The notes under the pieces: generated by a model | The model's input: the letters and a program-made list of their open reading frames with translations, nothing else | Database searches by the model: none | What the model was told of the DNA's origin: nothing | Part shown: piece after piece, positions 14,520 through 45,017 of the stretch | Position numbering within the stretch: the first letter of the stretch is position 1 | Layout of the letters: each line of letters begins with the position of its first letter | Program-made: the position numbers and the translations under genes | Assembly: GCA_964537895.1 (NCBI GenBank) | Contig: CAZIDK010000001.1 | Location: 233,338 to 289,593 of the forward strand | Direction of reading: 5' to 3' | Source: an uncultured Gammaproteobacteria bacterium | GTDB lineage: Bacteria > Patescibacteriota > Microgenomatia > Levybacterales > UBA12049 | Length of the DNA stretch: 56,256 nucleotides

Positions 14520-16121
14520 TTGATGATCAATATTCAAAAGAAAGAATCGGAGACGATTGAATTTAAGGAATCCATGAGCGAACTTGAGAACGCTGGAGAA
14601 ACTTTATGCGCTTTCGCTAATCAAAGAGGGGGAGATTTATACTTCGGAGTAAAGAACAATGGAGAAGTAAAAGGTATCCCAAGTATTAACGAAAAGACAA
14701 CGAGAGATATTTCACAGTACATTTTTGATAATCTCGAGCCTAAAAAAATAATAAGCATAGACCAAGAAACTATTGAAGGAATAAGTATATTAAAAATTTC
14801 AATTGGAAAAAGTGATACTCCATATCATACTTTCCGCAAGAAGCCCTATATAAGAATAGGTGCATCAACAAAATTAATGCCACAAGAAGAATATCAGCAT
14901 CGCTTGATGCTCTATAAAAGCACGAACAAAGATTATTCTTCTCAAATTATCTCTGAAGCAAAACTATCGGATTTATCATCAGATGCTATAGTAAAACTTA
15001 GAGCTCTACTTATGCAATCTGGAAGATACGACGTAGATATAAGCAAATTAACTGACGAGCAACTATTAAAAGATTTATTATTGATCCGAGATAATCAATT
15101 AACAATTGCTTCCTTGGTTTTGCTTGGCTCTGAAAGTGCCTTAAGTAATTTCTTGCCTTACTCTGAAGTAAGATTCGGATATAAAATCTCCGAATCAGAA
15201 ATAAGAAATCAAGATACAGCAATATTTAAAGGGGGCTATTTACTTTATTATGATCGGATTTGGGAAAAAATTCAGGCAAGAAATCTTACTCTATCTATCC
15301 CCTTAGGAATGAGGCTGGTTGAAAAGAAGGCTTTTGATGAACAAACTATTAGAGAGGCTGTAAACAATGCAATAATTCACAGGGATTATCTCGTCCAAGA
15401 ATCTAGTTTTATTATGCAATATCCTATAAAAATCGTTATCAAAAGTCCAGGAGGATTTCCTGAAGGAATAACAATCAACAATATTATGTTTGAAACTAAA
15501 CCTAGAAATAAACTGCTGGCTGATCTGCTATTTAAGTGTGAACTAGTTGAACAATTCGGGAATGGAGTAAATTTAATGTATAAAAACCAACTGGGTCTTG
15601 GAAAGAGCCCGCCAAACTATAGACAATCAACAGATAAAAGAGTAGCCCTAGAATTAGATGGAAAAATTCAAGATTTGGAGTTCGCTAAATATGTACTCAG
15701 AGTAGCAGAAAATAAAAATAAAGTACTAAATGATGTAGAGTTATTAATTCTAAATAAAATAAAGAATAATCAAAGCGTAGTTCCTAATGAAACAACCGAA
15801 GAGCTATTAAATCTTGGACTAATAGAAAGACGAGGTTTCAAGAAATTTATGTTATCGAAACAATATTACGAAGATACTAATCAGAAAGGTATATACACTA
15901 AGCAAAAGGGTTTAACGAAGAGCACGAATAAGGCTCTCATACTTAAGCACTTGCAGAATTTCGGATCTGGCAGAAAAGAGGATATAGCTCAAATTTTTAA
16001 TTATGAAATGAATGAAAAAACTCTCTGGAAACTACTTGATGAGCTAAAGAAAGAAGAAAAAATCTATTTTGATGGAAAGCCTCGTTCACGTACTGGTCAG
16101 TGGAAATTAAAGGATAAGTAA
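14520..16121 (+). CDS. Schlafen/AlbA_2 + HATPase_c_4 (RecG-C-like) + winged-helix protein
   Basis: ESETIEFKES, CAFANQRGGDLYFGV, REAVNNAIIHRDY, SPGGFP, PRNKLLA, EQFGNG; C-terminal wHTH ending GQW. Confidence 0.85.
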   Translation: MMINIQKKESETIEFKESMSELENAGETLCAFANQRGGDLYFGVKNNGEVKGIPSINEKTTRDISQYIFDNLEPKKIISIDQETIEGISILKISIGKSDTPYHTFRKKPYIRIGASTKLMPQEEYQHRLMLYKSTNKDYSSQIISEAKLSDLSSDAIVKLRALLMQSGRYDVDISKLTDEQLLKDLLLIRDNQLTIASLVLLGSESALSNFLPYSEVRFGYKISESEIRNQDTAIFKGGYLLYYDRIWEKIQARNLTLSIPLGMRLVEKKAFDEQTIREAVNNAIIHRDYLVQESSFIMQYPIKIVIKSPGGFPEGITINNIMFETKPRNKLLADLLFKCELVEQFGNGVNLMYKNQLGLGKSPPNYRQSTDKRVALELDGKIQDLEFAKYVLRVAENKNKVLNDVELLILNKIKNNQSVVPNETTEELLNLGLIERRGFKKFMLSKQYYEDTNQKGIYTKQKGLTKSTNKALILKHLQNFGSGRKEDIAQIFNYEMNEKTLWKLLDELKKEEKIYFDGKPRSRTGQWKLKDK

Positions 16122-16190
16122 TAGGTACAGGATAGGTAGTCAAGGGGTAATCTAAGGCAACTTATAGGTACAGGATAGGTAGTCAAGGGG
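16121..16190 (+). repeat. Two exact 27-bp direct repeats with a 16-bp spacer
   Basis: ataggtacaggataggtagtcaagggg at 16121-16147 and 16164-16190. Confidence 0.9.
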
Positions 16191-26422: not shown

Positions 26423-27106
26423 ATGGCAACAGTAAAAAAGAAAACCTCTGCAAAATCCGAAAAGAAAGTTTTAAAAACTACTAAACAGCATTTTTCCAAA
26501 AAAGAAGCAATAAACCTGGGATTTAAATTGGCAAAGAAAAATATTATATTTTTCATCGGGATTTTCGTTATAGTCGTTGTTATTTCCTCTATATCGTCAG
26601 CAATTCAAATAGGCGTAGCTTTAGAGAAACAGTCAATGTTGTATATTTTATTGAATATCTTAACATTTATTGTTAACGCAATTATTGGCATGGGACTTAT
26701 TAAAATATCTTTGGCGTTTATCGATAATAAAAAACCCAAATTCTCAGATCTTTTTTATGTAAAACCGTTTGTTAATTTTATATTAGCCAGTTTAATAAGA
26801 GGCGTAATAACTTTTATTGGTTTTATTTTGCTTATTATTCCGGGAATTATTTTTTCTATAAGATTGCAATATGTTACATATTTAATTGTCGATAAAAATT
26901 TGCCTCCGGTTGAGGCTATTAAAAAAAGCTGGGAAATGACAAAGGGAAATACATGGAATCTTTTTTTCTTTGGTATTTTGCTTTTCTTAGTTAATGTATT
27001 GGGCGCAATTATTCTTTTAGTAGGTCTTTTTGTAACAGTGCCCTTAACAATGCTTGCCATAACCTTTGTTTATCGTAAGCTCCTCTTACATTCAAAAGCT
27101 GCCTAG
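26423..27106 (+). CDS. Integral membrane protein (DUF975/glycerophosphodiesterase membrane-domain-like)
   Basis: LLIIPGII, AIKKSWEMTKG, multiple TMs. Confidence 0.75.
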   Translation: MATVKKKTSAKSEKKVLKTTKQHFSKKEAINLGFKLAKKNIIFFIGIFVIVVVISSISSAIQIGVALEKQSMLYILLNILTFIVNAIIGMGLIKISLAFIDNKKPKFSDLFYVKPFVNFILASLIRGVITFIGFILLIIPGIIFSIRLQYVTYLIVDKNLPPVEAIKKSWEMTKGNTWNLFFFGILLFLVNVLGAIILLVGLFVTVPLTMLAITFVYRKLLLHSKAA

Positions 27107-27125
27107 GTTATAATCATTTTATGGA

Positions 27126-27189
27126 CCCCGCATATTCTTACTTTCTCGCGAGGCTTACATCCTCGCCTCGAAAGAGCGAATATACGGGG
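27126..27189. mobile_element. ~65-bp hairpin element, copy A (CCCC..CTTA..RGCG..GGGG family)
   Basis: Homologous to 28176-28240 and 29822-29886; lies between ATGGAC (27121) and ATGGAT (27208). Confidence 0.8.
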
Positions 27190-27207
27190 CAAGAAAATTA
27201 ATAATTT

Positions 27208-28137
27208 ATGGATAAATTAGTAATAATAGACGGTAACGCGATTGTGCATCGCGCATTCCACGCCCTACCTCCGATGAATACTCAAGACGGCCAGTTAACA
27301 AACGCAGTTTATGGTTTTTTTGCCATGCTTTTAAAGCTTTTAAACGACTTAAAACCGGAATATTTAATAGTTTGCTTTGACAGGCCTAAGCCAACTTTTA
27401 GAAAGCAAATGTATGTAGGTTATCAGGCAAAAAGACCGAAAATGTCAGACGATTTAGCTCCGCAAATAGATCTTTTGCACAAAGTATTAGAAAAAGCCAA
27501 AATAGAACATTTTGAAATAGACGGATATGAGGCAGATGACATTATCGGAACAATTGCGACTCAATCCGCCGCAAAAAATCTCCAGGCAATTATCGTCTCC
27601 GGAGACAGGGACATGCTTCAGCTTGTAAATCATAAAGTTCTTGTTTTGGCCCCAATCTCGGGTATTACAAAAATGATGCTTTTCAATGAGGAGAAAGTAA
27701 AAGAAAAATATGGTTTAAAACCATCGCAATTTATAGATTACAAAGCTTTGGTAGGTGACTCTTCGGACAATTACCCGGGAGTTACGGGAATTGGACCAAA
27801 AACAGCCAGTAATCTTCTTAATAAATATAATACTTTTGAAAACCTTTATGAGCATATCTCCGAACTTCCGGAAAATATCGGTTCAAAACTTGCGACGGAT
27901 GCGGAACAAGCTGCTCTTGCCAAAAAACTGGCAACAATCGTTACGGATGCACCTGTAAAAATGGATTTGGAAAAAGCAAAAATAGGAAAGATTGATAAAA
28001 TAGGACTTCTTGAGGCTTTTAAAGAGCTTGGTTTTAAAACTTTAATGGGAAGAGTTCTTGTGCAGGAAGTTCCGGTTAAAAAACTAAACAAGAAAGAGAA
28101 TAAAAAAGAAATTAGAGATCAACTGAATTTATTATGA
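27208..28137 (+). CDS. Stand-alone 5'-3' exonuclease/flap endonuclease (PolA N-terminal domain only)
   Basis: IDGN..HRAFHA, YEADD, SGDRD, LVGDSSDNYPGV.GIGPKTA; stops after 309 aa. Confidence 0.92.
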   Translation: MDKLVIIDGNAIVHRAFHALPPMNTQDGQLTNAVYGFFAMLLKLLNDLKPEYLIVCFDRPKPTFRKQMYVGYQAKRPKMSDDLAPQIDLLHKVLEKAKIEHFEIDGYEADDIIGTIATQSAAKNLQAIIVSGDRDMLQLVNHKVLVLAPISGITKMMLFNEEKVKEKYGLKPSQFIDYKALVGDSSDNYPGVTGIGPKTASNLLNKYNTFENLYEHISELPENIGSKLATDAEQAALAKKLATIVTDAPVKMDLEKAKIGKIDKIGLLEAFKELGFKTLMGRVLVQEVPVKKLNKKENKKEIRDQLNLL

Positions 28138-28175
28138 AAGTCGCAATTGTTCACGATTATATAAAAGAATACGGC

Positions 28176-28240
28176 CCCCGCACAGAACTTACCTTCTTCC
28201 GAGGCCTACGTCCTCGCGGCGAAGGGGCGTTTATGCGGGG
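28176..28240. mobile_element. ~65-bp hairpin element, copy B, between duplicated glycosyltransferase starts
   Basis: ccccgcacagaa-ctta-ccttc..gaagg-ggcg-tttatgcgggg. Confidence 0.8.
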
Positions 28241-28255
28241 TAAAGGAGCAGGGAA

Positions 28256-29398
28256 ATGAGAGTGGCTATCGTTCATGACTACATCAAGGAATTTGGAGGT
28301 GCAGAGAGAGTGCTAGAAAAGCTTCATGAAGTTTTTCCCGATGCGCCTATCTATACAACTGTATATTTACCTTCATTTTTAGGGCCTCATAAAAAAAGAT
28401 TTGCGGGTATGAATATTAAAACTTCGTTTTTGCAGTTTTTTCCGTTTAAAGCAAAACTAATCAGTCCTTTTAGGCTTTTGGCCCCAACTGCATTCAGAAG
28501 CTTTGATTTTTCCGCATATGATGCAATAATTGTTTCCCAAACCGGTTCGTATTTCCCAAATGCGATTAAAAAAAGAGGAGCTAAGCTTATTTGCTATTGC
28601 CATACGCCGCCAAGGTATCTGTATGGGTTTGAAACGGCAAGGGATTGGAAGAAAAATAAGCTTTTTATGGTTTTGGGGATGATTTCGATTCACTTTTTAA
28701 GAATGACAGACTTTAAATCTTCGCAAAATGTAGATTATTTTATTGCAAACTCGGAAAATGTCAGGAAAAGAATACAAAAGTTTTATAGAAGAGATGCGAT
28801 TGTGATTTTTCCGCCTGTAAGTTCAGCAACTAGTAATCTAGCAACTAGCCATCAGTTACAGAACGACGAACTGAATGCTAACTCGCTAGTTGCTAGAGGC
28901 TATTATCTGGCTGGAGGAAGACTTGCAAGGCCAAAGCATATAGATTTAATAGTAGAAACATTTTCAAAACTAAATCTTCCCTTAAAAATATTCGGAAAAG
29001 CATTTGCCGGCTATGGGAAAGAACTTAAAGATAAAGCAAAAGAAAATGTTGAATTTTTAGGCGAAATTACAGATGAAGAAAAATATAAATTTATGAAAGG
29101 AGCAAAAGCATTTGTTTTTGCTTCGGAAGACGAAGATTTTGGCATAACTCCGGCAGAGGCAGAGGCCCTGGGGACGCCGGTTATAGCTTTTGCATCAGGA
29201 GGAACATTGGAAACAGTAGTTGATAATAAAACAGGAATATTTTTTAACGAATTAACAATTGAGTCACTTTCGGAAGCGATAGAAAAGCTTAATAAAACTA
29301 AATTTAAAACAGAAGACATTATTGCTCAAGGGAATAAATTTTCGGAAAGTATTTTTAAATCTAAAATAAATGAATTTGTAGATTCAAAAATAAAATGA
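28256..29398 (+). CDS. Glycosyltransferase family 4
   Basis: VAIVHDY..GGAERV, YCHTPPRY, EDFGITPAEA..GTPVIA. Confidence 0.92.
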   Translation: MRVAIVHDYIKEFGGAERVLEKLHEVFPDAPIYTTVYLPSFLGPHKKRFAGMNIKTSFLQFFPFKAKLISPFRLLAPTAFRSFDFSAYDAIIVSQTGSYFPNAIKKRGAKLICYCHTPPRYLYGFETARDWKKNKLFMVLGMISIHFLRMTDFKSSQNVDYFIANSENVRKRIQKFYRRDAIVIFPPVSSATSNLATSHQLQNDELNANSLVARGYYLAGGRLARPKHIDLIVETFSKLNLPLKIFGKAFAGYGKELKDKAKENVEFLGEITDEEKYKFMKGAKAFVFASEDEDFGITPAEAEALGTPVIAFASGGTLETVVDNKTGIFFNELTIESLSEAIEKLNKTKFKTEDIIAQGNKFSESIFKSKINEFVDSKIK

Positions 29399-29799
29399 AA
29401 TCAAGAATTTGTGTCTCAGCAGTTATAGAAAAAGACGGTAAGATTCTCTTGGGACAGAAGATAAAAGATTTAGGTCCATATCCGAATACGTGGCTTTTGC
29501 CAGGCGGAGGTGTTGAGCAAGGGGAATCTTTAGAAGAGGCAATTAGAAGAGAAATTAAAGAAGAGACCGGCTTAGAGGTGAATAATCTTGAAAAAATAGG
29601 CGTTGATGAAGATGATGAGCCTAATAAGTATGAAGAAATGACGCATTATATTTTTCATTCTTTCAAGGCAAATCCGATAGGGAAACACAAAGACACAGAA
29701 GAATTTCCCACGCTTGGGTGGTTTAAGATAGCTGAACTTAAAAATATCCTTCACGCAAGACCATCAATAAAACTTTTTAAGAAACTGGGGTATTTATAA
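29395..29799 (+). CDS. NUDIX hydrolase
   Basis: PGGGVEQGESLEEAIRREIKEETGL Nudix box. Confidence 0.92.
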   Translation: MKSRICVSAVIEKDGKILLGQKIKDLGPYPNTWLLPGGGVEQGESLEEAIRREIKEETGLEVNNLEKIGVDEDDEPNKYEEMTHYIFHSFKANPIGKHKDTEEFPTLGWFKIAELKNILHARPSIKLFKKLGYL

Positions 29800-29821
29800 T
29801 GCCGGAATTACCTGAAATAGA

Positions 29822-29886
29822 CCCCATACAAAACTTACTTTCTCCCGAGGTCTACGCCCTCGCGTCGAAGGGGCGTTTATACGGGG
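29822..29886. mobile_element. ~65-bp hairpin element, copy C, between duplicated mutM starts
   Basis: ccccatacaaaa-ctta-ctttc..gaagg-ggcg-tttatacgggg. Confidence 0.8.
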
Positions 29887-29917
29887 CAAGAACAATTAAT
29901 ACGAAAGGAGTAATGCT

Positions 29918-30865
29918 ATGCCCGAGCTACCTGAAGTAGAGACAATAAGGCTTGGTTTGCAAAAATATCTTGTCGGGCATAAGATTGAAAATATTGAGGT
30001 TAGAATTCCTAAAATGTTTGCCGGCAGAAAAGAAGATATTTTAGGAGTAAAAATTACTAATATCAAAAGAATAGGTAAAGGATTAATTATCGAATTTGAT
30101 AATGATTATCTTTTAGCAGTGCATTTTAAAATGACCGGCCAGTTGGTTTTTCGGGATAAAAATACTCAAAACCTGGTTCTTTCCAAAAAAGTTGGGGGCG
30201 ATGTCCTGCCAACAAAGTATTCCCATGTTATTTTCACCTTGGATAAAGGAGCTATGCTTTACTATAACGACCTGCGCCGCTTTGGCTGGGTAAAGATTTT
30301 GAAAAAAGATGAACTGATGAAAATGCCATTTTTTAGCGAAATGGGACCGGAACCCTTCGTCAGCAAAGCTTCCTCAGGGCAAGCCGTTTTAACTCTCGAT
30401 AAGTTTAAATCAATACTTTCAAACTCAAGCGTTGCTGTAAAGCCTCTGATAATGGATCAGAAGAGAATAGGAGGAATAGGTAATATCTACGCCAATGATG
30501 CCTTATTCAAAGCCGGAATTGATCCAAGAAGATCTGCAAAGCAGATTACAAAAGAAGAGGCTAAGAAACTGTACAAGGCAATATTTGATGTTTTAAAAAA
30601 AAGTTTGGAATACGGCGGATCATCGGATGAAAATTTTGTTAATGCGCTTGGACAAGAGGGGGCATATCAAAATCATACCTTAGTTTATGGGAAAAAAGGC
30701 CAAAAATGTCCAAAATGTCATTCGACTCTGAGGGACAAGCCCTCAGGCTCAGATCTTCGATTCCGAGATCACTCAGATTCGAGGAACTCGAAGAGCGGCT
30801 CAATAATTGAAAAGATCCAGCTTGGGGGCCGTGGAACCTTTTTTTGCGAGAAGTGTCAGGGGTAG
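29918..30865 (+). CDS. mutM: Formamidopyrimidine-DNA glycosylase
   Basis: MPELPEVET, HFKMTG, DLRRFG, GIGNIYA, Zn finger CPKC...GRGTFFCEKCQ. Confidence 0.96.
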   Translation: MPELPEVETIRLGLQKYLVGHKIENIEVRIPKMFAGRKEDILGVKITNIKRIGKGLIIEFDNDYLLAVHFKMTGQLVFRDKNTQNLVLSKKVGGDVLPTKYSHVIFTLDKGAMLYYNDLRRFGWVKILKKDELMKMPFFSEMGPEPFVSKASSGQAVLTLDKFKSILSNSSVAVKPLIMDQKRIGGIGNIYANDALFKAGIDPRRSAKQITKEEAKKLYKAIFDVLKKSLEYGGSSDENFVNALGQEGAYQNHTLVYGKKGQKCPKCHSTLRDKPSGSDLRFRDHSDSRNSKSGSIIEKIQLGGRGTFFCEKCQG

Positions 30866-30911: not shown

Positions 30912-31637
30912 ATGAAACCTACGGAAATAAAATATAAACGAGTGCTTTTAAAGTTAACAGGGGAACTTTTTGGTGGCGAGGAAGGTAAAAAAGGAATAGA
31001 CTTCACAGAAATAAAAAAAATAGCTACTTATATCCACGAACTTCATGAAGAGACAAAGATAGAATTTGCAATAGTTATTGGAGCAGGTAATTTGTTGCGT
31101 GCTAGAGAGCTTTCGGGAACAAACGTAGATAGGGTTACAGCAGATTATATCGGAATGTTGGGAACCATAATGAACGCACTTGCATTACAAGAGGAGTTGG
31201 AAAAATTAGGAAGCATAACAAGGGTAATGTCATCCTTAAGTGTTCAGACTGTTTGTGAACCTTTTATTAAAAGAAGGGCAATACGTCATTTAGAAAAAGG
31301 TAGAATTGTTATACTTGCAGGAGGAACCGGAAATCCTTTTTTTACAACGGATTCAGCGGCAGCTCTAAAAGCATGTGAACTCAATTGCGAGATACTTCTT
31401 AAAGCTAGTAATATAGACGGAGTTTTTAATATTGATCCTAAAATTGACAAAAGAGCAAAATTATATGAGAGAGTTAGCTTCGAAATAGCTTTAAAAAAGG
31501 GTTTAACTGTTATGGACAATACAGCTTTTTCTCTTTGTCAGCAAGAAAAAATTCCGATTATAGTTTTTAATATTAGTTCATTCGATAATATTGAGAAAAT
31601 TCTTCGCGGAGAAAAAATAGGCACATTAGTTAATTAA
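30912..31637 (+). CDS. pyrH: UMP kinase, bacterial type
   Basis: YKRVLLKLTGE, DYIGMLGT, GTGNPFFTTDSAAAL, VMDNTA. Confidence 0.93.
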   Translation: MKPTEIKYKRVLLKLTGELFGGEEGKKGIDFTEIKKIATYIHELHEETKIEFAIVIGAGNLLRARELSGTNVDRVTADYIGMLGTIMNALALQEELEKLGSITRVMSSLSVQTVCEPFIKRRAIRHLEKGRIVILAGGTGNPFFTTDSAAALKACELNCEILLKASNIDGVFNIDPKIDKRAKLYERVSFEIALKKGLTVMDNTAFSLCQQEKIPIIVFNISSFDNIEKILRGEKIGTLVN

Positions 31638-32431: not shown

Positions 32432-33547
32432 GTGCTAAAAAGTATTTCCCTTCAAAATTTCAGAAATTACTCACAGGACGAATTCAAATTCAACGGTAAC
32501 ACCACGGTTATTATCGGTCCGAATACCTCCGGCAAAACCAATCTTATTGAGGCTATTTTCTTACTTTCTACGGGAAAAAGTTTTAGAACGGATAAAGATA
32601 TTCAGATGATTTCTTTTAGACAGGATTTGGCAAGAGTCATCGGGAGAGTAGACCCTTCGGTGGATTCGGCAAGCTCACCACAAGCAAGCTCAGGGCAAGC
32701 AGCAAGCCTTGAGGTTGTCATAACCAACGGGCAGCTGGGAGGTAAATCCCCGCAATTTAAAAAGTTTCTGGTAAACGGTGTTGCCAAAAGAAGAGCAGAT
32801 TTTGTAGAAAACTTTCCCGCTGTTTTATTTTCGCCGGAAGACTTAGAAATTATTGTTGATTCCCCATCCCTCCGCAGAAAATTCCTGGACAGCATTTTAG
32901 AGCAGGTTGACAGGGAATATAGGCTGGCTATTGTTTCTTATGCCAAAGGTTTGCGGCAAAGGAACGCGCTTTTGGAAAACACCAGAGAAACAAATATCAG
33001 AAATGAAAAACAGTTTGAGTACTGGGATAATTTGGTAATTGAAAATGGAGATTTAATCACTAAAAAAAGAGAAGAATTTATTAATTTTGTAAATAATGAA
33101 ACCAAAGATATTTTTGATTTTGCCGCTTTTTACGATAAAAGCGTAATTTCCAAGGCTAGACTTTTGCAATACAAAGAAGCGGAAGTTGCCTCCGGGGTAA
33201 CTTTGGTTGGTCCTCATAGAGATGATTTTTCAATTAGTATGTTTAATCCTTCGGCAGGCTCAGGACAAGCAACGACCCACGATGTTAAGTATTTCGGTTC
33301 ACGCGGCCAGCAAAGATTGACAGTTTTACAGCTAAAAATGCTTGAGCTTTTGTTTATTGAAAAAAAATTGGGGCAAAGACCGGTTTTGCTTCTTGATGAT
33401 ATCTTTTCGGAACTAGACGAAAGCCATATAGAGTTAATTTTAGAAATGATAGGACTTCAGCAGACGATTATTACAACAACTCACAAGGAATTTATTCCCG
33501 CTAATGTTTTAAAGAAGATGCAAATCCTGCATTTTTCTAAAGAGTAA
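32432..33547 (+). CDS. recF: DNA replication/repair protein RecF
   Basis: NFRNY, GPNTSGKTN, GPHRDD, SRGQQR, LLLDDIFSELD. Confidence 0.94.
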   Translation: MLKSISLQNFRNYSQDEFKFNGNTTVIIGPNTSGKTNLIEAIFLLSTGKSFRTDKDIQMISFRQDLARVIGRVDPSVDSASSPQASSGQAASLEVVITNGQLGGKSPQFKKFLVNGVAKRRADFVENFPAVLFSPEDLEIIVDSPSLRRKFLDSILEQVDREYRLAIVSYAKGLRQRNALLENTRETNIRNEKQFEYWDNLVIENGDLITKKREEFINFVNNETKDIFDFAAFYDKSVISKARLLQYKEAEVASGVTLVGPHRDDFSISMFNPSAGSGQATTHDVKYFGSRGQQRLTVLQLKMLELLFIEKKLGQRPVLLLDDIFSELDESHIELILEMIGLQQTIITTTHKEFIPANVLKKMQILHFSKE

Positions 33548-33559: not shown

Positions 33560-33589
33560 TAAATGATAAAATTAACCAAGGAGGAAAAA

Positions 33590-33660
33590 TAAATCCTGCA
33601 CTTTTATGTTAAAATTTATAAGACTTCATAAGTTCAAGAAGGGAGAAAGTGCAGGGTAAA
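33590..33660. mobile_element. MITE-like element flanked by TAAA duplication
   Basis: taaa-tcctgcacttttatgttaaaattta...ggagaaagtgcaggg-taaa; homologous to 44681-44751. Confidence 0.7.
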
Positions 33661-34529
33661 TGGAAGAATTTAATATTGCCGATTTAAAGAAACTTTATGT
33701 TCCGTTAAAAGATTCTCACAAGGGTCAAAACGGAAAGCTGATGGTTATCGGAGGGTCTGTGCTTTTCCACGCCGCATCGCTCTGGTCACTAGAAATTGCA
33801 TCAAGGATTGTTGATATGGTGTTTTACTCCTCGGTTGATTCGAATAACAAAATTGTTCAGCAAGAAAAGCAGGAATTTAGGGACGGAATTGTAGTTCCAA
33901 GAGATAAAATAGAACATTATATTGACGAAGCAGACGTTGTCTTAATCGGCCCCGGTCTTTCAAGAGAAGAAGGAGTAGAAAAAGGGGATGACGACACAAA
34001 GCTTCTTACGGAAACTCTTTTACAAAAATACAAAAACAAAAAATGGGTCGTGGATGGCGGTTCGTTGCAGGTTATAAAACCGGAAATCTTACCAACTGGT
34101 TCGATTATTACACCTCATCATAAAGAGTTTTCCAAGCTTTTTAATTTTCAATTTTCAATTTCCAATTTCCAATCAAATTCAAATAAACAAATGTCTCAAA
34201 TTCAAAACAAGGTTTCCGAAATGGCTAAGAAATTTAACTGTACTATTTTATTGAAAGGGGAGATTGATGTTATATCGAATGGGGCAAGAACTGTTCAAAT
34301 TTCGGGCGGGAATGCGGGAATGACAAAAGGCGGAACAGGGGATGTTTTGGCAGGTTTGGTTGCTGCTTTGTATTGCAAAAACGATGCGTTTTTGTCGGCA
34401 AGCTGCGGTTCATACATTAACAAAAAGGCAGGAGATGGGCTTTATAAAAAAGTTGGTTTATATTTTAATTCTTCCGATTTGGCTGACGAAATTCCCATTG
34501 TAATGAAAAATCTAATCTTGACAAGCTAA
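33660..34529 (+). CDS. nnrD: ADP-dependent NAD(P)H-hydrate dehydratase (YjeF C-terminal type)
   Basis: SHKGQNG..IGGS, IGPGL, ITPH..EF, LLKG, GGTGDVLAG. Confidence 0.88.
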   Translation: MEEFNIADLKKLYVPLKDSHKGQNGKLMVIGGSVLFHAASLWSLEIASRIVDMVFYSSVDSNNKIVQQEKQEFRDGIVVPRDKIEHYIDEADVVLIGPGLSREEGVEKGDDDTKLLTETLLQKYKNKKWVVDGGSLQVIKPEILPTGSIITPHHKEFSKLFNFQFSISNFQSNSNKQMSQIQNKVSEMAKKFNCTILLKGEIDVISNGARTVQISGGNAGMTKGGTGDVLAGLVAALYCKNDAFLSASCGSYINKKAGDGLYKKVGLYFNSSDLADEIPIVMKNLILTS

Positions 34530-44059: not shown

Positions 44060-44683
44060 ATGAAGTTGATAGTTGGGCTCGGTAATCCGGGATTAAAATA
44101 CGAACGTACAAGACATAACCTGGGTTTTGTTGCTGTTGAACATTTTTTAAAAGACTTCGCGCCGGTAAAAGATGGAACTTGGGAAGATTCAAAAAAATTT
44201 AAAAGCGAGATTGCAGAAATTACTTGGCAGCCGAAAGCCTCGTTACCGCAAAAAGTAATTCTCTGTAAGCCCAAAACCTATATGAATAACTCCGGAATGG
44301 CTGTTAAAATAATTAAAGATTTTTATAAAATTCACCCATCGGATATTTGGATCATTCACGATGATGTTGATTTACCTTTAGGCAGCATGAAAATAAGACT
44401 TGGGGGAGCATCTGCGGGGCATAAGGGCGTTGATTCAATAATTAACACTCTTGGTACGGACAAGTTTTGGAGATTTAGATTAGGTATTGGAAAGCCGAAA
44501 CAAAATTTAAGTGAAAAGCACCAGAGCTTTGTTTTTAAAGGTGTTGATAACTATGTTTTGGGGGAATTAATGGGCGGAGATTGGAGCAGGGCAAAAACTC
44601 TTATTAAAAAATCGGTAAAAGCAATTGAAACAGCGCTTGAAAAGGATCTTACAGTTGCCATGAACAGGTTTAATACAAAATAA
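44060..44683 (+). CDS. pth: Peptidyl-tRNA hydrolase
   Basis: MKLIVGLGNPG, TRHNLGF, KPKTYMN.SG, HDDVDL, GHKG, RLGIG. Confidence 0.96.
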   Translation: MKLIVGLGNPGLKYERTRHNLGFVAVEHFLKDFAPVKDGTWEDSKKFKSEIAEITWQPKASLPQKVILCKPKTYMNNSGMAVKIIKDFYKIHPSDIWIIHDDVDLPLGSMKIRLGGASAGHKGVDSIINTLGTDKFWRFRLGIGKPKQNLSEKHQSFVFKGVDNYVLGELMGGDWSRAKTLIKKSVKAIETALEKDLTVAMNRFNTK

Positions 44684-44751
44684 ACCCTGCGCTTTTATGT
44701 TAAAATTTAGAAAAATTTCAAAAATTATTGAAGGAGAAGGTGCAAGATAAA
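44681..44751. mobile_element. MITE-like element flanked by TAAA duplication
   Basis: taaa-ccctgcgcttttatgttaaaattta...ggagaaggtgcaaga-taaa. Confidence 0.7.
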
Positions 44752-45017
44752 TGCAGAAAGTATCGCAAATTCTTAAAAACTTCGATCCTGTAAAGGATAA
44801 GTATATTTCCAGGGATTTTCAGGCATTCGGAATATGGCTTGCCGAAGAGATGGACGATTACAAAAATAGGTCAATGTATATAAAACTTGCAAAAGTAAAT
44901 CACAGGAGCATTCTGGAAAAATCCCTGTCTTTTGTTAAAGACAGCAATGCCGATAATAAAGTTGCTCTTTTTTTGTGGAAATTAAAACAGCTTAAAAACG
45001 AAGTAAAAACAAAATAA
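44751..45017 (+). CDS. Small basic hypothetical protein
   Basis: FQAFGIWLAEEM..MYIKLAK..ILEKSLSFVKDS..LFLWKL. Confidence 0.75.
   Translation: MQKVSQILKNFDPVKDKYISRDFQAFGIWLAEEMDDYKNRSMYIKLAKVNHRSILEKSLSFVKDSNADNKVALFLWKLKQLKNEVKTK

Follow-up and report, generated by a model that had tools for sequence, protein, structure and literature searches.

Why should a gene begin twice, with a hairpin set between its two beginnings? The question is raised by mutM (fpg) in a stretch of 56,256 nucleotides (nt; G000:C1:233338-289593, hereafter the window) from G000, a genome of 0.79 Mb with 37% G+C in 11 contigs. Here a short copy of the start of mutM overlaps the end of a NUDIX hydrolase gene, is cut off by a rod-like hairpin repeat, and is followed by a second start that leads into the whole gene. 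We refer to the hairpin repeat as E, to the upstream copy of a gene end as U, to the downstream copy as D, and to the neighboring glycosyltransferase as GT; G001 and G002 are same-genus sister species of G000. The same U-E-D layout is found at other genes and in other genomes, and its recurrence points to a so far undescribed replacement of gene ends.

Two Starts at the mutM Locus

29395-29799, + strand: NUDIX hydrolase gene (PF00293, 1.1e-22), absent from this place in G001 and G002
29799-29821, + strand: U of mutM, the displaced start copy; 23 nt, ATG plus 7 codons, ending in GA at the junction
29799-29939, + strand: leader open reading frame (ORF) of 46 amino acids (aa) that opens MPELPEID, enters via U and traverses the hairpin
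29822-29886, + strand: element C, a rod-like hairpin CCCC...GGGG of 65 nt with four helices; 95.1 bits with the covariance model
29887-29917, + strand: spacer CAAGAACAATTAA, common to the mutM copies of other genomes, then the Shine-Dalgarno (SD) sequence AAAGGAG (29904-29910)
29918-30865, + strand: mutM/fpg (D), 315 aa, opening MPELPEVE (from the ORF list and Pfam)

The last A of the NUDIX stop codon TAA doubles as the A of ATG 29799 (TAATG overlap). The parts that the first-pass annotation had read off, from this overlap and MPELPEID through the element to AAAGGAG and the MPELPEVE start at ATG 29918, are all seen in the sequence and its ORFs, and its distinction between a cut-off upstream start and a downstream ATG that has its own SD and is continuous with full-length Fpg is borne out. 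AAAGGAG lies 7 nt 5′ of ATG 29918, and the protein read from there has the features of an Fpg: an N-terminal domain from residue 1 (PF01149, Fapy_DNA_glyco, residues 1-124 against profile positions 1-116), a Pro directly after the Met, an H2TH domain (PF06831, 157-236) and a zinc finger (PF06827, zf-FPG_IleRS, 295-314). The catalytic nucleophile of Fpg is its N-terminal Pro, and Pro-2 of the downstream protein aligns to profile position 1-2. The leader ORF at 29799-29939 matched no Pfam family; it crosses element C, which holds no stop triplet in any of the three forward frames, and terminates 19 nt beyond the downstream ATG in a different frame. E itself does not hold the gene-specific start. 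Compared over 24 nt, the two mutM starts differ at 6 positions, of which 4 are synonymous and the others exchange I for V and D for E. The supposition that an exact new start had been supplied therefore fails, since the copies differ at synonymous sites both here and in 20 other coding pairs.

In each of 4 public runs (from one study, possibly the source of this DNA), one contig contains the whole region 26900-30400 with 0 differences. This identity, together with the presence of the same layout in genomes of other origins, rules out an assembly chimera. No contig lacking E was seen among the contigs of the four runs, which is uninformative on its absence because contigs drop rare variants.

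The coding sequence of mutM has two further peculiarities. The Fpg of G000 carries an extra in-frame insert of ~22 residues between the zinc-finger cysteine pairs (about 30733-30800), and relatives align to its residues 1-271 and 293-314 only; the insert DNA is GC-rich, with a short hairpin. In addition, a GC-rich motif encoding SSGQA-like peptides occurs in frame within mutM (30372-30385) and recF (32688-32701), 2 matches against 0.17 expected, and may represent a second family of in-frame inserts.

A Structurally Conserved Hairpin Repeat

In this order of bacteria, which have small genomes and are like those of the candidate phyla radiation (CPR), E is a hairpin repeat of ~65 nt with a conserved structure. 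Searching with nhmmer gave ten places in G000, where E has 11 copies in total, and a covariance model built from 11 copies located it in 29 of 101 relatives, each of which has between 1 and 11 copies. Across 74 aligned copies the structure is a four-helix rod-like hairpin of 20 pairs, in which 91.1% of cells are paired. Compensatory changes occur in 17 of the 20 pairs, a result matched by 0 of 500 shuffles; with the partners slid, pairing does not exceed 55.7% of cells. Although it had been left out of the model that made the alignment, the middle helix is 89.8% paired. Terminal inverted repeats, CCCCRYAYA on the left and TRTRYGGGG on the right, close the element. Read from the sequences, a compensatory change from A-T to G-C separates the exonuclease-leader copy of G000 from that of G001; the trxB copies of these two genomes are identical and their adjoining spacers differ. 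A search of 26800-30100 against Rfam (cmscan, E-value up to 1) gave two chance-level matches, none of them on the elements.

Copies of E cluster by locus across genomes and genera, not by genome. The nearest relative of a mutM copy is the mutM copy of another genome, and the copies at ychF, trxB, the exonuclease gene, the lon leader and the tRNAs behave likewise. The uvrA copy (G000:C2:76646-76756) has a 33-nt GC-rich hairpin nested within its inner loop, which is the same in the contigs of the four runs.

Besides element C, the window holds two neighboring copies, A and B.

27126-27189, + strand: element A, before the 5′-3′ exonuclease gene (27208-28137); 90.4 bits, with an orthologous copy in G001
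28134-28175, + strand: U of the GT gene, MKVAIVHDYIKEYG; its ATG overlaps the exonuclease stop (ATGA)
28176-28240, + strand: element B; 82.4 bits
28256-29398, + strand: GT gene (D), which starts MRVAIVHDYIKEFGG; Pfam GT1/GT4, with its SD AAAGGAG abutting the end of element B

Elements A and B are in register with C, at 68% and 85% identity, and one covariance model recovers all three at 82-95 bits, in agreement with their earlier assignment to a single family. A repeat search likewise groups 27125-27192, 28176-28243 and 29822-29889, and the 45-nt element core has 0.00 occurrences expected in shuffles. At element A the duplication is limited to ATGGA.

Recurrence of the Layout at Other Genes and in Other Genomes

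As the first-pass annotation had proposed, the layout is not confined to mutM: it recurs at the neighboring GT gene and at other genes. Duplicates were scored by comparing the two flanks of each element, 60 nt on the left and 250 nt on the right, at a BLOSUM62 local score of at least 33. This threshold is reached by 26 of 71 copies and by 9 of 426 mismatched-pair controls, the latter mostly the same gene in another genome; intermediate scores are scarce, with only 3 further copies at 28-32. The duplicated N-termini comprise the first 2-14 codons of mutM, GT, trxB, ychF, tsaD, uvrA, lepA and two more genes. Gene ends of other kinds are affected as well, namely the last 15-19 codons of trxB (G001, G037), about 22 nt of tRNA 3′ ends and, in one subfamily inspected by eye, the CTTGA of a putative -35 box, with the full TTGACA and the -10 box further on. 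In every case the left junction is the first C of CCCC; apart from a purine, the bases that precede it show no clear consensus.

At mutM the junction falls after the GA of codon 8 in G000, G037, G075, G007, G024, G011, G021 and G205, and also in G041 and G035, where the inner insert differs. Since this junction is shared with at least nine other genomes, from several genera and two families, the mutM locus of G000 is not the independent instance that it had been taken for. An upstream MPELPE without an insert was not found: 25 of 30 mutM loci, including those of two same-genus species, have neither the upstream copy nor an insert, and all five loci with the copy have an insert. In G199, E lies in the mutM leader with no upstream copy. 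GT has two junction types, at +4 (G028, G169) and at +41 (G000, G138); in G028 and G169, E stands directly after the ATGA overlap before GT.

Some loci depart from the common arrangement. In G124 (C136, L120 about 1501-1700), mutM consists of U and E followed by the last ~20 zinc-finger codons, the body having been deleted. A diverged relative of E lies between two trxB C-terminal copies in G001 (C12) and G037 (C7), with the stop codon included in G001, and the trxB gene of G001 has an element at both ends.

Divergence Between the Two Copies

Among the 211 codons of the 20 coding pairs, synonymous differences number 111 and non-synonymous ones 30; at the nucleotide level 175 of 633 positions differ, an identity of 72%. 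The observed non-synonymous fraction of 0.21 compares with 0.85 under simulated neutral decay, for which the minimum in 2000 runs was 0.73. The closest coding pair, at mutM of G011, agrees at 21 of 23 nt, and no coding pair is identical; the tRNA-end duplicates agree at 22 of 22 and 22 of 23 nt. A decaying duplication should give many near-identical young pairs, and as none is seen, the two copies are, as judged from their sequences, not a fresh or decaying target duplication. There is no shift in third-position G+C between the copies (73/177 against 65/177). Mutagenesis of the type caused by diversity-generating retroelements was ruled out by eye, the differences between copies not being restricted to adenines.

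Orientation and Read-Through

E is usually located in a gene leader, directly 5′ of the SD and start of a co-directional gene. A long ORF starts within 30 nt downstream on the strand of E in 24 of 65 copies, compared with 2 of 65 for the other side and strand. The forward strand is without a stop triplet in any frame in 37 of 65 copies (mean 0.55 stops; 9% of shuffles) and the reverse strand in 0 of 65 (mean 3.0 stops), counts that offer no clean statistical test because the copies are related. In 17 of 18 cases the leader ORF stops at -6 to +19 nt of the new start, a range that short AT-rich spacers would similarly yield by default. An SD-like motif precedes the new start in 12 of 18 cases, the starts without it lie 7-15 nt behind E, and the downstream copy has its own ATG in 18 of 18. 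A common peptide encoded through E was ruled out, as all three frames are in use.

The Locus Compared with Same-Genus Relatives

29918-29980, + strand: anomalous 5′ tract of mutM, 67-70% identity to G001 against 83-100% later

Upstream of the NUDIX gene, identity to G001 is 91% at the end of ftsH, 88% for a membrane protein, 91% for the exonuclease and 74-76% over most of GT. The NUDIX gene and nt 1-60 of mutM have no match (the latter by BLAST), nt 61-800 of mutM are 87.8% identical, and the next two genes return to 89% and 91%. In 30-nt windows mutM proceeds from 67% and 70% to 83-100%. The GT gene is diverged in the same manner over its first 60 nt. Over nt 1-93, the identity of mutM is 74% with G001, 81% with G002 and 83% with G145, and over nt 1-69 it is 86% with G028; this ranking of relatives is opposite to that of the gene body, which suggests exchange and not a uniform acceleration, though in a short tract and on a difference of only a few bases. 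The NUDIX-TAATG-U junction occurs also in G041, a member of another family, whose NUDIX protein shares 86 of 134 aa with that of G000. Taken together, the absence of NUDIX from the sister species, the match in G041 and the diverged 5′ tract indicate that the mutM block of G000 was probably imported as a ready-made NUDIX-U-E-D piece, with its right crossover near mutM nt 60-90.

The locus is a mosaic in other respects: the UMP-kinase-like gene (30912-31637), like the NUDIX gene (29395-29799), has no match in the corresponding same-genus regions, and the GT gene is 90% identical to that of G002 over 443 nt and 78% identical beyond.

A Proposed Recombinational Origin for the Layout

From the anatomy of the locus, the family and fold of E, its orientation and recurrence, the synonymous divergence and the anomalous 5′ tract, we infer a recombination route, a special role for the hairpin foot, and translational coupling. 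The reading that we favor, in which our confidence is about evenly balanced, is that the downstream start is the working one, that recombination between diverged homologues, joined at the hairpin's left foot, gave rise to the layout, and that U survives as a leader ORF reading through E. The start-replacing mechanism of the first-pass annotation would thus be right in substance as to the replacement; what falls away is its independence and its exact copy, and its origin looks recombinational.

The steps of this reading can be laid out for mutM. The upstream MPELPEID would be a truncated start, from an earlier mutM allele or a different one. Donor-type alleles, with E in the leader, exist in G199, G028 and G169. 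E with its spacer and SD, start and first codons would enter an E-less relative, in which pairing would be possible only inside the gene; the right side would be joined by homology in the gene body and the left side exactly at the hairpin's left foot, a few codons into the resident gene. The product would be U-E-D, with copies diverged from birth and the resident start stranded, and an allele so formed could be passed on vertically or reach relatives through ordinary homologous exchange. In the case of overlapping genes (ATGA, TAATG), a joint within the first downstream codons alone would spare the upstream gene. It can also be argued that alleles with identical copies lose E by slippage between the repeats, so that alleles born diverged would be expected to persist. 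Because the joint is constant at the hairpin foot, a defined DNA end would be needed there, and a structure-specific HUH enzyme that cuts at the foot is a candidate; G000 has one gene resembling the REP-associated tyrosine transposases (RAYT) of repetitive extragenic palindromes (REPs). The stranded start would keep recruiting ribosomes, and its ORF would cross the stop-free E and end at or next to the new start. This end of the leader ORF fits termination-reinitiation coupling, by which translation of the new cistron may stay linked to the upstream gene and to the site where ribosomes first entered.

The proposed topology for U-E-D is that of homology-facilitated illegitimate recombination in natural transformation, in which homology anchors one side and short microhomology makes the joint on the other. 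Joint points vary in that process, whereas the joint of E is always the first base of the hairpin. That GT has undergone more than one junction event (+4 and +41) supports the recombination reading. Natural competence, which would make the uptake of DNA plausible, is reported for CPR bacteria (PMC10633639).

A number of observations weigh against this account. No enzyme is tied to E, and Y1 genes are present in 17 of 29 carriers and 33 of 72 non-carriers. Carriers resemble one another in their 5′ tracts no more than non-carriers do (0.805 between D copies, 0.805 between native starts), so that a gene start traveling with E is to be taken as a proposal. An anomalous 5′ tract would equally result if, after a duplication, the new start had changed faster at synonymous sites. 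Order-wide BLAST searches with the mutM and GT blocks returned homologous blocks, but no near-identical donor of E and the 5′ tract among 245 genomes of the order, the best being G075 at 82%. The coding pairs were selected by amino-acid score, which biases them toward synonymous differences. U itself looks selected and not stranded: in 10 mutM carriers it varies almost only at third positions, plus ATG/GTG and I/V, its codons are chosen more uniformly than those of native starts (GAA in 8/10 and TTA in 8/10, vs 9/22 each), and 9 of 10 carriers found through E keep it intact. The mutM U copies are as far apart (0.834) as native starts are (0.805). The two GT copies of G138 share lineage-specific residues, and the 6 of 41 nt at which they differ are all synonymous. 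Finally, the U of GT matches native GT starts across the order, at 83-95% in more than 40 genomes, and likeness to sister species is therefore no proof of a resident origin. The conservation of U may reflect selection, renewal from working starts by recombination, or the youth of all of these alleles.

Alternative Explanations

The alternative that survives best, and that we treat as possible while leaning against it, is that the layout is old and vertically inherited with many losses, U being a leader ORF whose start and first codons purifying selection maintains, for example because it loads ribosomes that open the hairpin and reinitiate at the new start, or because it acts as a regulatory upstream ORF. 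The confinement of variation in the 10 mutM copies of U to third positions, ATG/GTG and I/V would fit such selection, as would the NUDIX-TAATG-U junction common to G000 and G041 although their NUDIX proteins are only 64% identical, the grouping of E copies by locus across genera, the stop-free forward strand with leader ORFs that end at the new start, and the case of trxB, whose new start has no SD and whose leader ORF stops 3 nt before it. However, we know of no reason for a leader ORF to conserve the N-termini of eight different proteins, the use of all three frames through E leaves no common peptide to select, presence and absence differ inside genera (G000 vs G001 and G002; G024 vs G145), and the 5′ tract in G000 is incongruent with the gene body.

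Two known repeat types come close to the position of E, according to passages of PMC3184786. Neisseria REP2 repeats are small, lie directly 5′ of genes and bring a promoter, a ribosome binding site, as well as an ATG. As a small repeat with internal inverted repeats directly upstream of genes, E is like REP2 as described there, but E has no ATG or fixed SD, its spacers differ between genes, and those passages do not describe REP2 between two diverged copies of a gene's own start. The mycobacterial interspersed repetitive units (MIRU) are short repeats lying between cistrons; they have small ORFs that overlap the stop and the start on either side and link the cistrons translationally. The leader ORFs of E similarly overlap the stop and start of the flanking genes; MIRU, however, are direct-repeat units between genes, whereas E forms one rod hairpin within what was once a coding start, the first codons of which occur twice.

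A bolder reading, which we hold to be doubtful, makes E a selfish hairpin that replaces gene ends. A HUH or RAYT-like enzyme would cut at the foot, the one-ended strand would be guided to the homologous gene by the start that it drags along, and E would so enter essential genes harmlessly; both starts would be kept because ribosomes from the old start open the hairpin and hand over to the new one. If true, E would represent a novel class of mobile element, guided by homology, as well as a novel kind of device for translational coupling. A HUH enzyme would give a junction exactly at the hairpin foot, and E resembles the REP/RAYT and IS200/IS605 systems as a GC-rich hairpin in an AT-rich genome, with compensatory changes and with a candidate RAYT-like HUH gene present. 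It differs from REP/RAYT in that G000 has only 11 copies, that no E flanks the RAYT-like gene and that there is no fixed target motif, and we know of no REP that duplicates gene ends. The single Y1_Tnp gene in G000 scores 54.4 bits, and its NF047646 match of 49.3 bits is below the family cutoff of 80. Around this gene (contig C3, about 14.6 kb; RAYT-like protein at 14646-14987) no E was found, only a local 17-nt palindrome.

The RAYT-like gene itself (G000:C3:13400-16400, L116 1031-1780, minus strand) contains this perfect 17-nt palindrome twice in frame, with partial copies beside it, and the palindrome was found nowhere else in the genome.

It is improbable, in our judgment, that E is a non-autonomous transposon, similar to REPs or to miniature inverted-repeat transposable elements (MITEs), that makes a long and variable target duplication, the survivors duplicating a gene start whose copies then diverge. 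Such a transposon would account for the terminal inverted repeats, for copies at many unrelated loci, for the closeness of the tRNA-end duplicates and of the G011 mutM pair, and for the RAYT-like Y1 gene in G000. It would not account for duplicates that range from 4 to 57 nt in length, for the lack of any identical coding pair and the mostly synonymous differences so far from simulated neutral decay, for a diverged tract that reaches beyond the duplicate, or for copies that group by locus and not by genome. Moreover, no E lies beside the Y1 gene, the presence of Y1 does not clearly track that of E, and family searches of G000 matched neither an IS110-type gene nor a reverse transcriptase (RVT_1). 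Integron recombination is not known to duplicate its target, and the ends of E do not seem to resemble the end motifs of attC sites; the attC reading was set aside on these grounds. For MITEs in or next to genes (Correia, RPE, Nezha), the passages of PMC3184786 describe terminal inverted repeats, an RNA stem-loop, ORFs through the element and fusions with host ORFs. E has the terminal inverted repeats, the long stem-loop and the ORFs reading through; it departs from MITEs as presented in those passages by lacking a short, fixed and identical target duplication, its flanks being variable in length and synonymously diverged, and by its clustering according to locus.

We consider it very unlikely that E and its spacer form a miniature integrative element, moved in trans by a tyrosine recombinase and carrying a replacement for the end of its target. 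The targets are classical ones (tRNA 3′ ends, conserved gene ends), a displaced fragment on one side faces a restored gene on the other, and G000 has two Phage_integrase-family genes; but these lie elsewhere, with no integrase adjoining any examined copy, the junctions have no common core (identity there is 2-8 nt and gene-specific), a single repeat family serves many different genes, and the anomalous tract ends within the gene at no fixed point. Integrative elements that restore their target include islands in tRNA genes and SXT at the 5′ end of prfC (PMC2654960). With target-restoring islands of this kind E shares a displaced target end, a replacement that keeps the gene intact, and tRNA 3′ ends among its targets. 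It is set apart from them by a length of about 100 nt against tens of kilobases, by the lack of an integrase and of a shared crossover core, and by its many targets. The replacement supplied by an island has another source than the displaced copy and is for that reason not identical to it; SXT reportedly supplies a new 5′ end of prfC. Set beside all of these systems, E has the hairpin and inverted-repeat features of known repeats and fails on fixed duplication, on RAYT flanking and on a recombinase with a shared core.

We give next to no credence to use of the upstream ATG with a ribosomal or RNA-level step that skips E, the spacer and the second copy, both starts then yielding the same protein: this would explain why U keeps the true N-terminal amino acids, and GC-rich hairpin inserts bypassed by ribosomes are known from gene 60 of phage T4 and from a yeast mitochondrion, but the gap would be about 95-150 nt, the take-off and landing codons often differ (ATA/GAC vs GTA/GAG in mutM; GGC vs GGA in GT) and the junction is not followed by a stop, whereas bypass of the T4 gene 60 type has matching codons and a stop right after take-off, and the downstream copy has an SD in 12 of 18 cases and an ATG in all 18.

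Further Repeats in the Window

33586-33662 and 44677-44753: a second repeat family of 77 nt, whose copies are 77% identical and contain an inverted repeat
16116-16190: a pair of 32-nt direct repeats with 94% identity, separated by 43 nt

The 77-nt family has a GGAG-like motif and ends in ATG, and it may be another leader element.

Implications

A limited literature search, in sources seen in part, returned no description of a repeat family between synonymously diverged copies of a gene's own end, which is not proof of novelty; a full-text search for such repeats in CPR bacteria/Patescibacteria gave nothing relevant, a thin basis for a claim of this kind. Small interspersed hairpin repeats are known to add promoters, terminators or in-frame peptides. 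For genome annotation, the consequence is that gene callers may choose the wrong ATG or call spurious 40-aa ORFs at E sites. Should the U copies prove to be selected, a leader ORF that mimics the N-terminus of the protein encoded behind it would have a function that is so far unknown. If the recombination reading is true, the E family marks the seams of gene-end replacement. It would then provide a handle on the recombination that reshapes CPR genes, which often overlap, and would show how an insertion in the first codons of an essential gene can be harmless.

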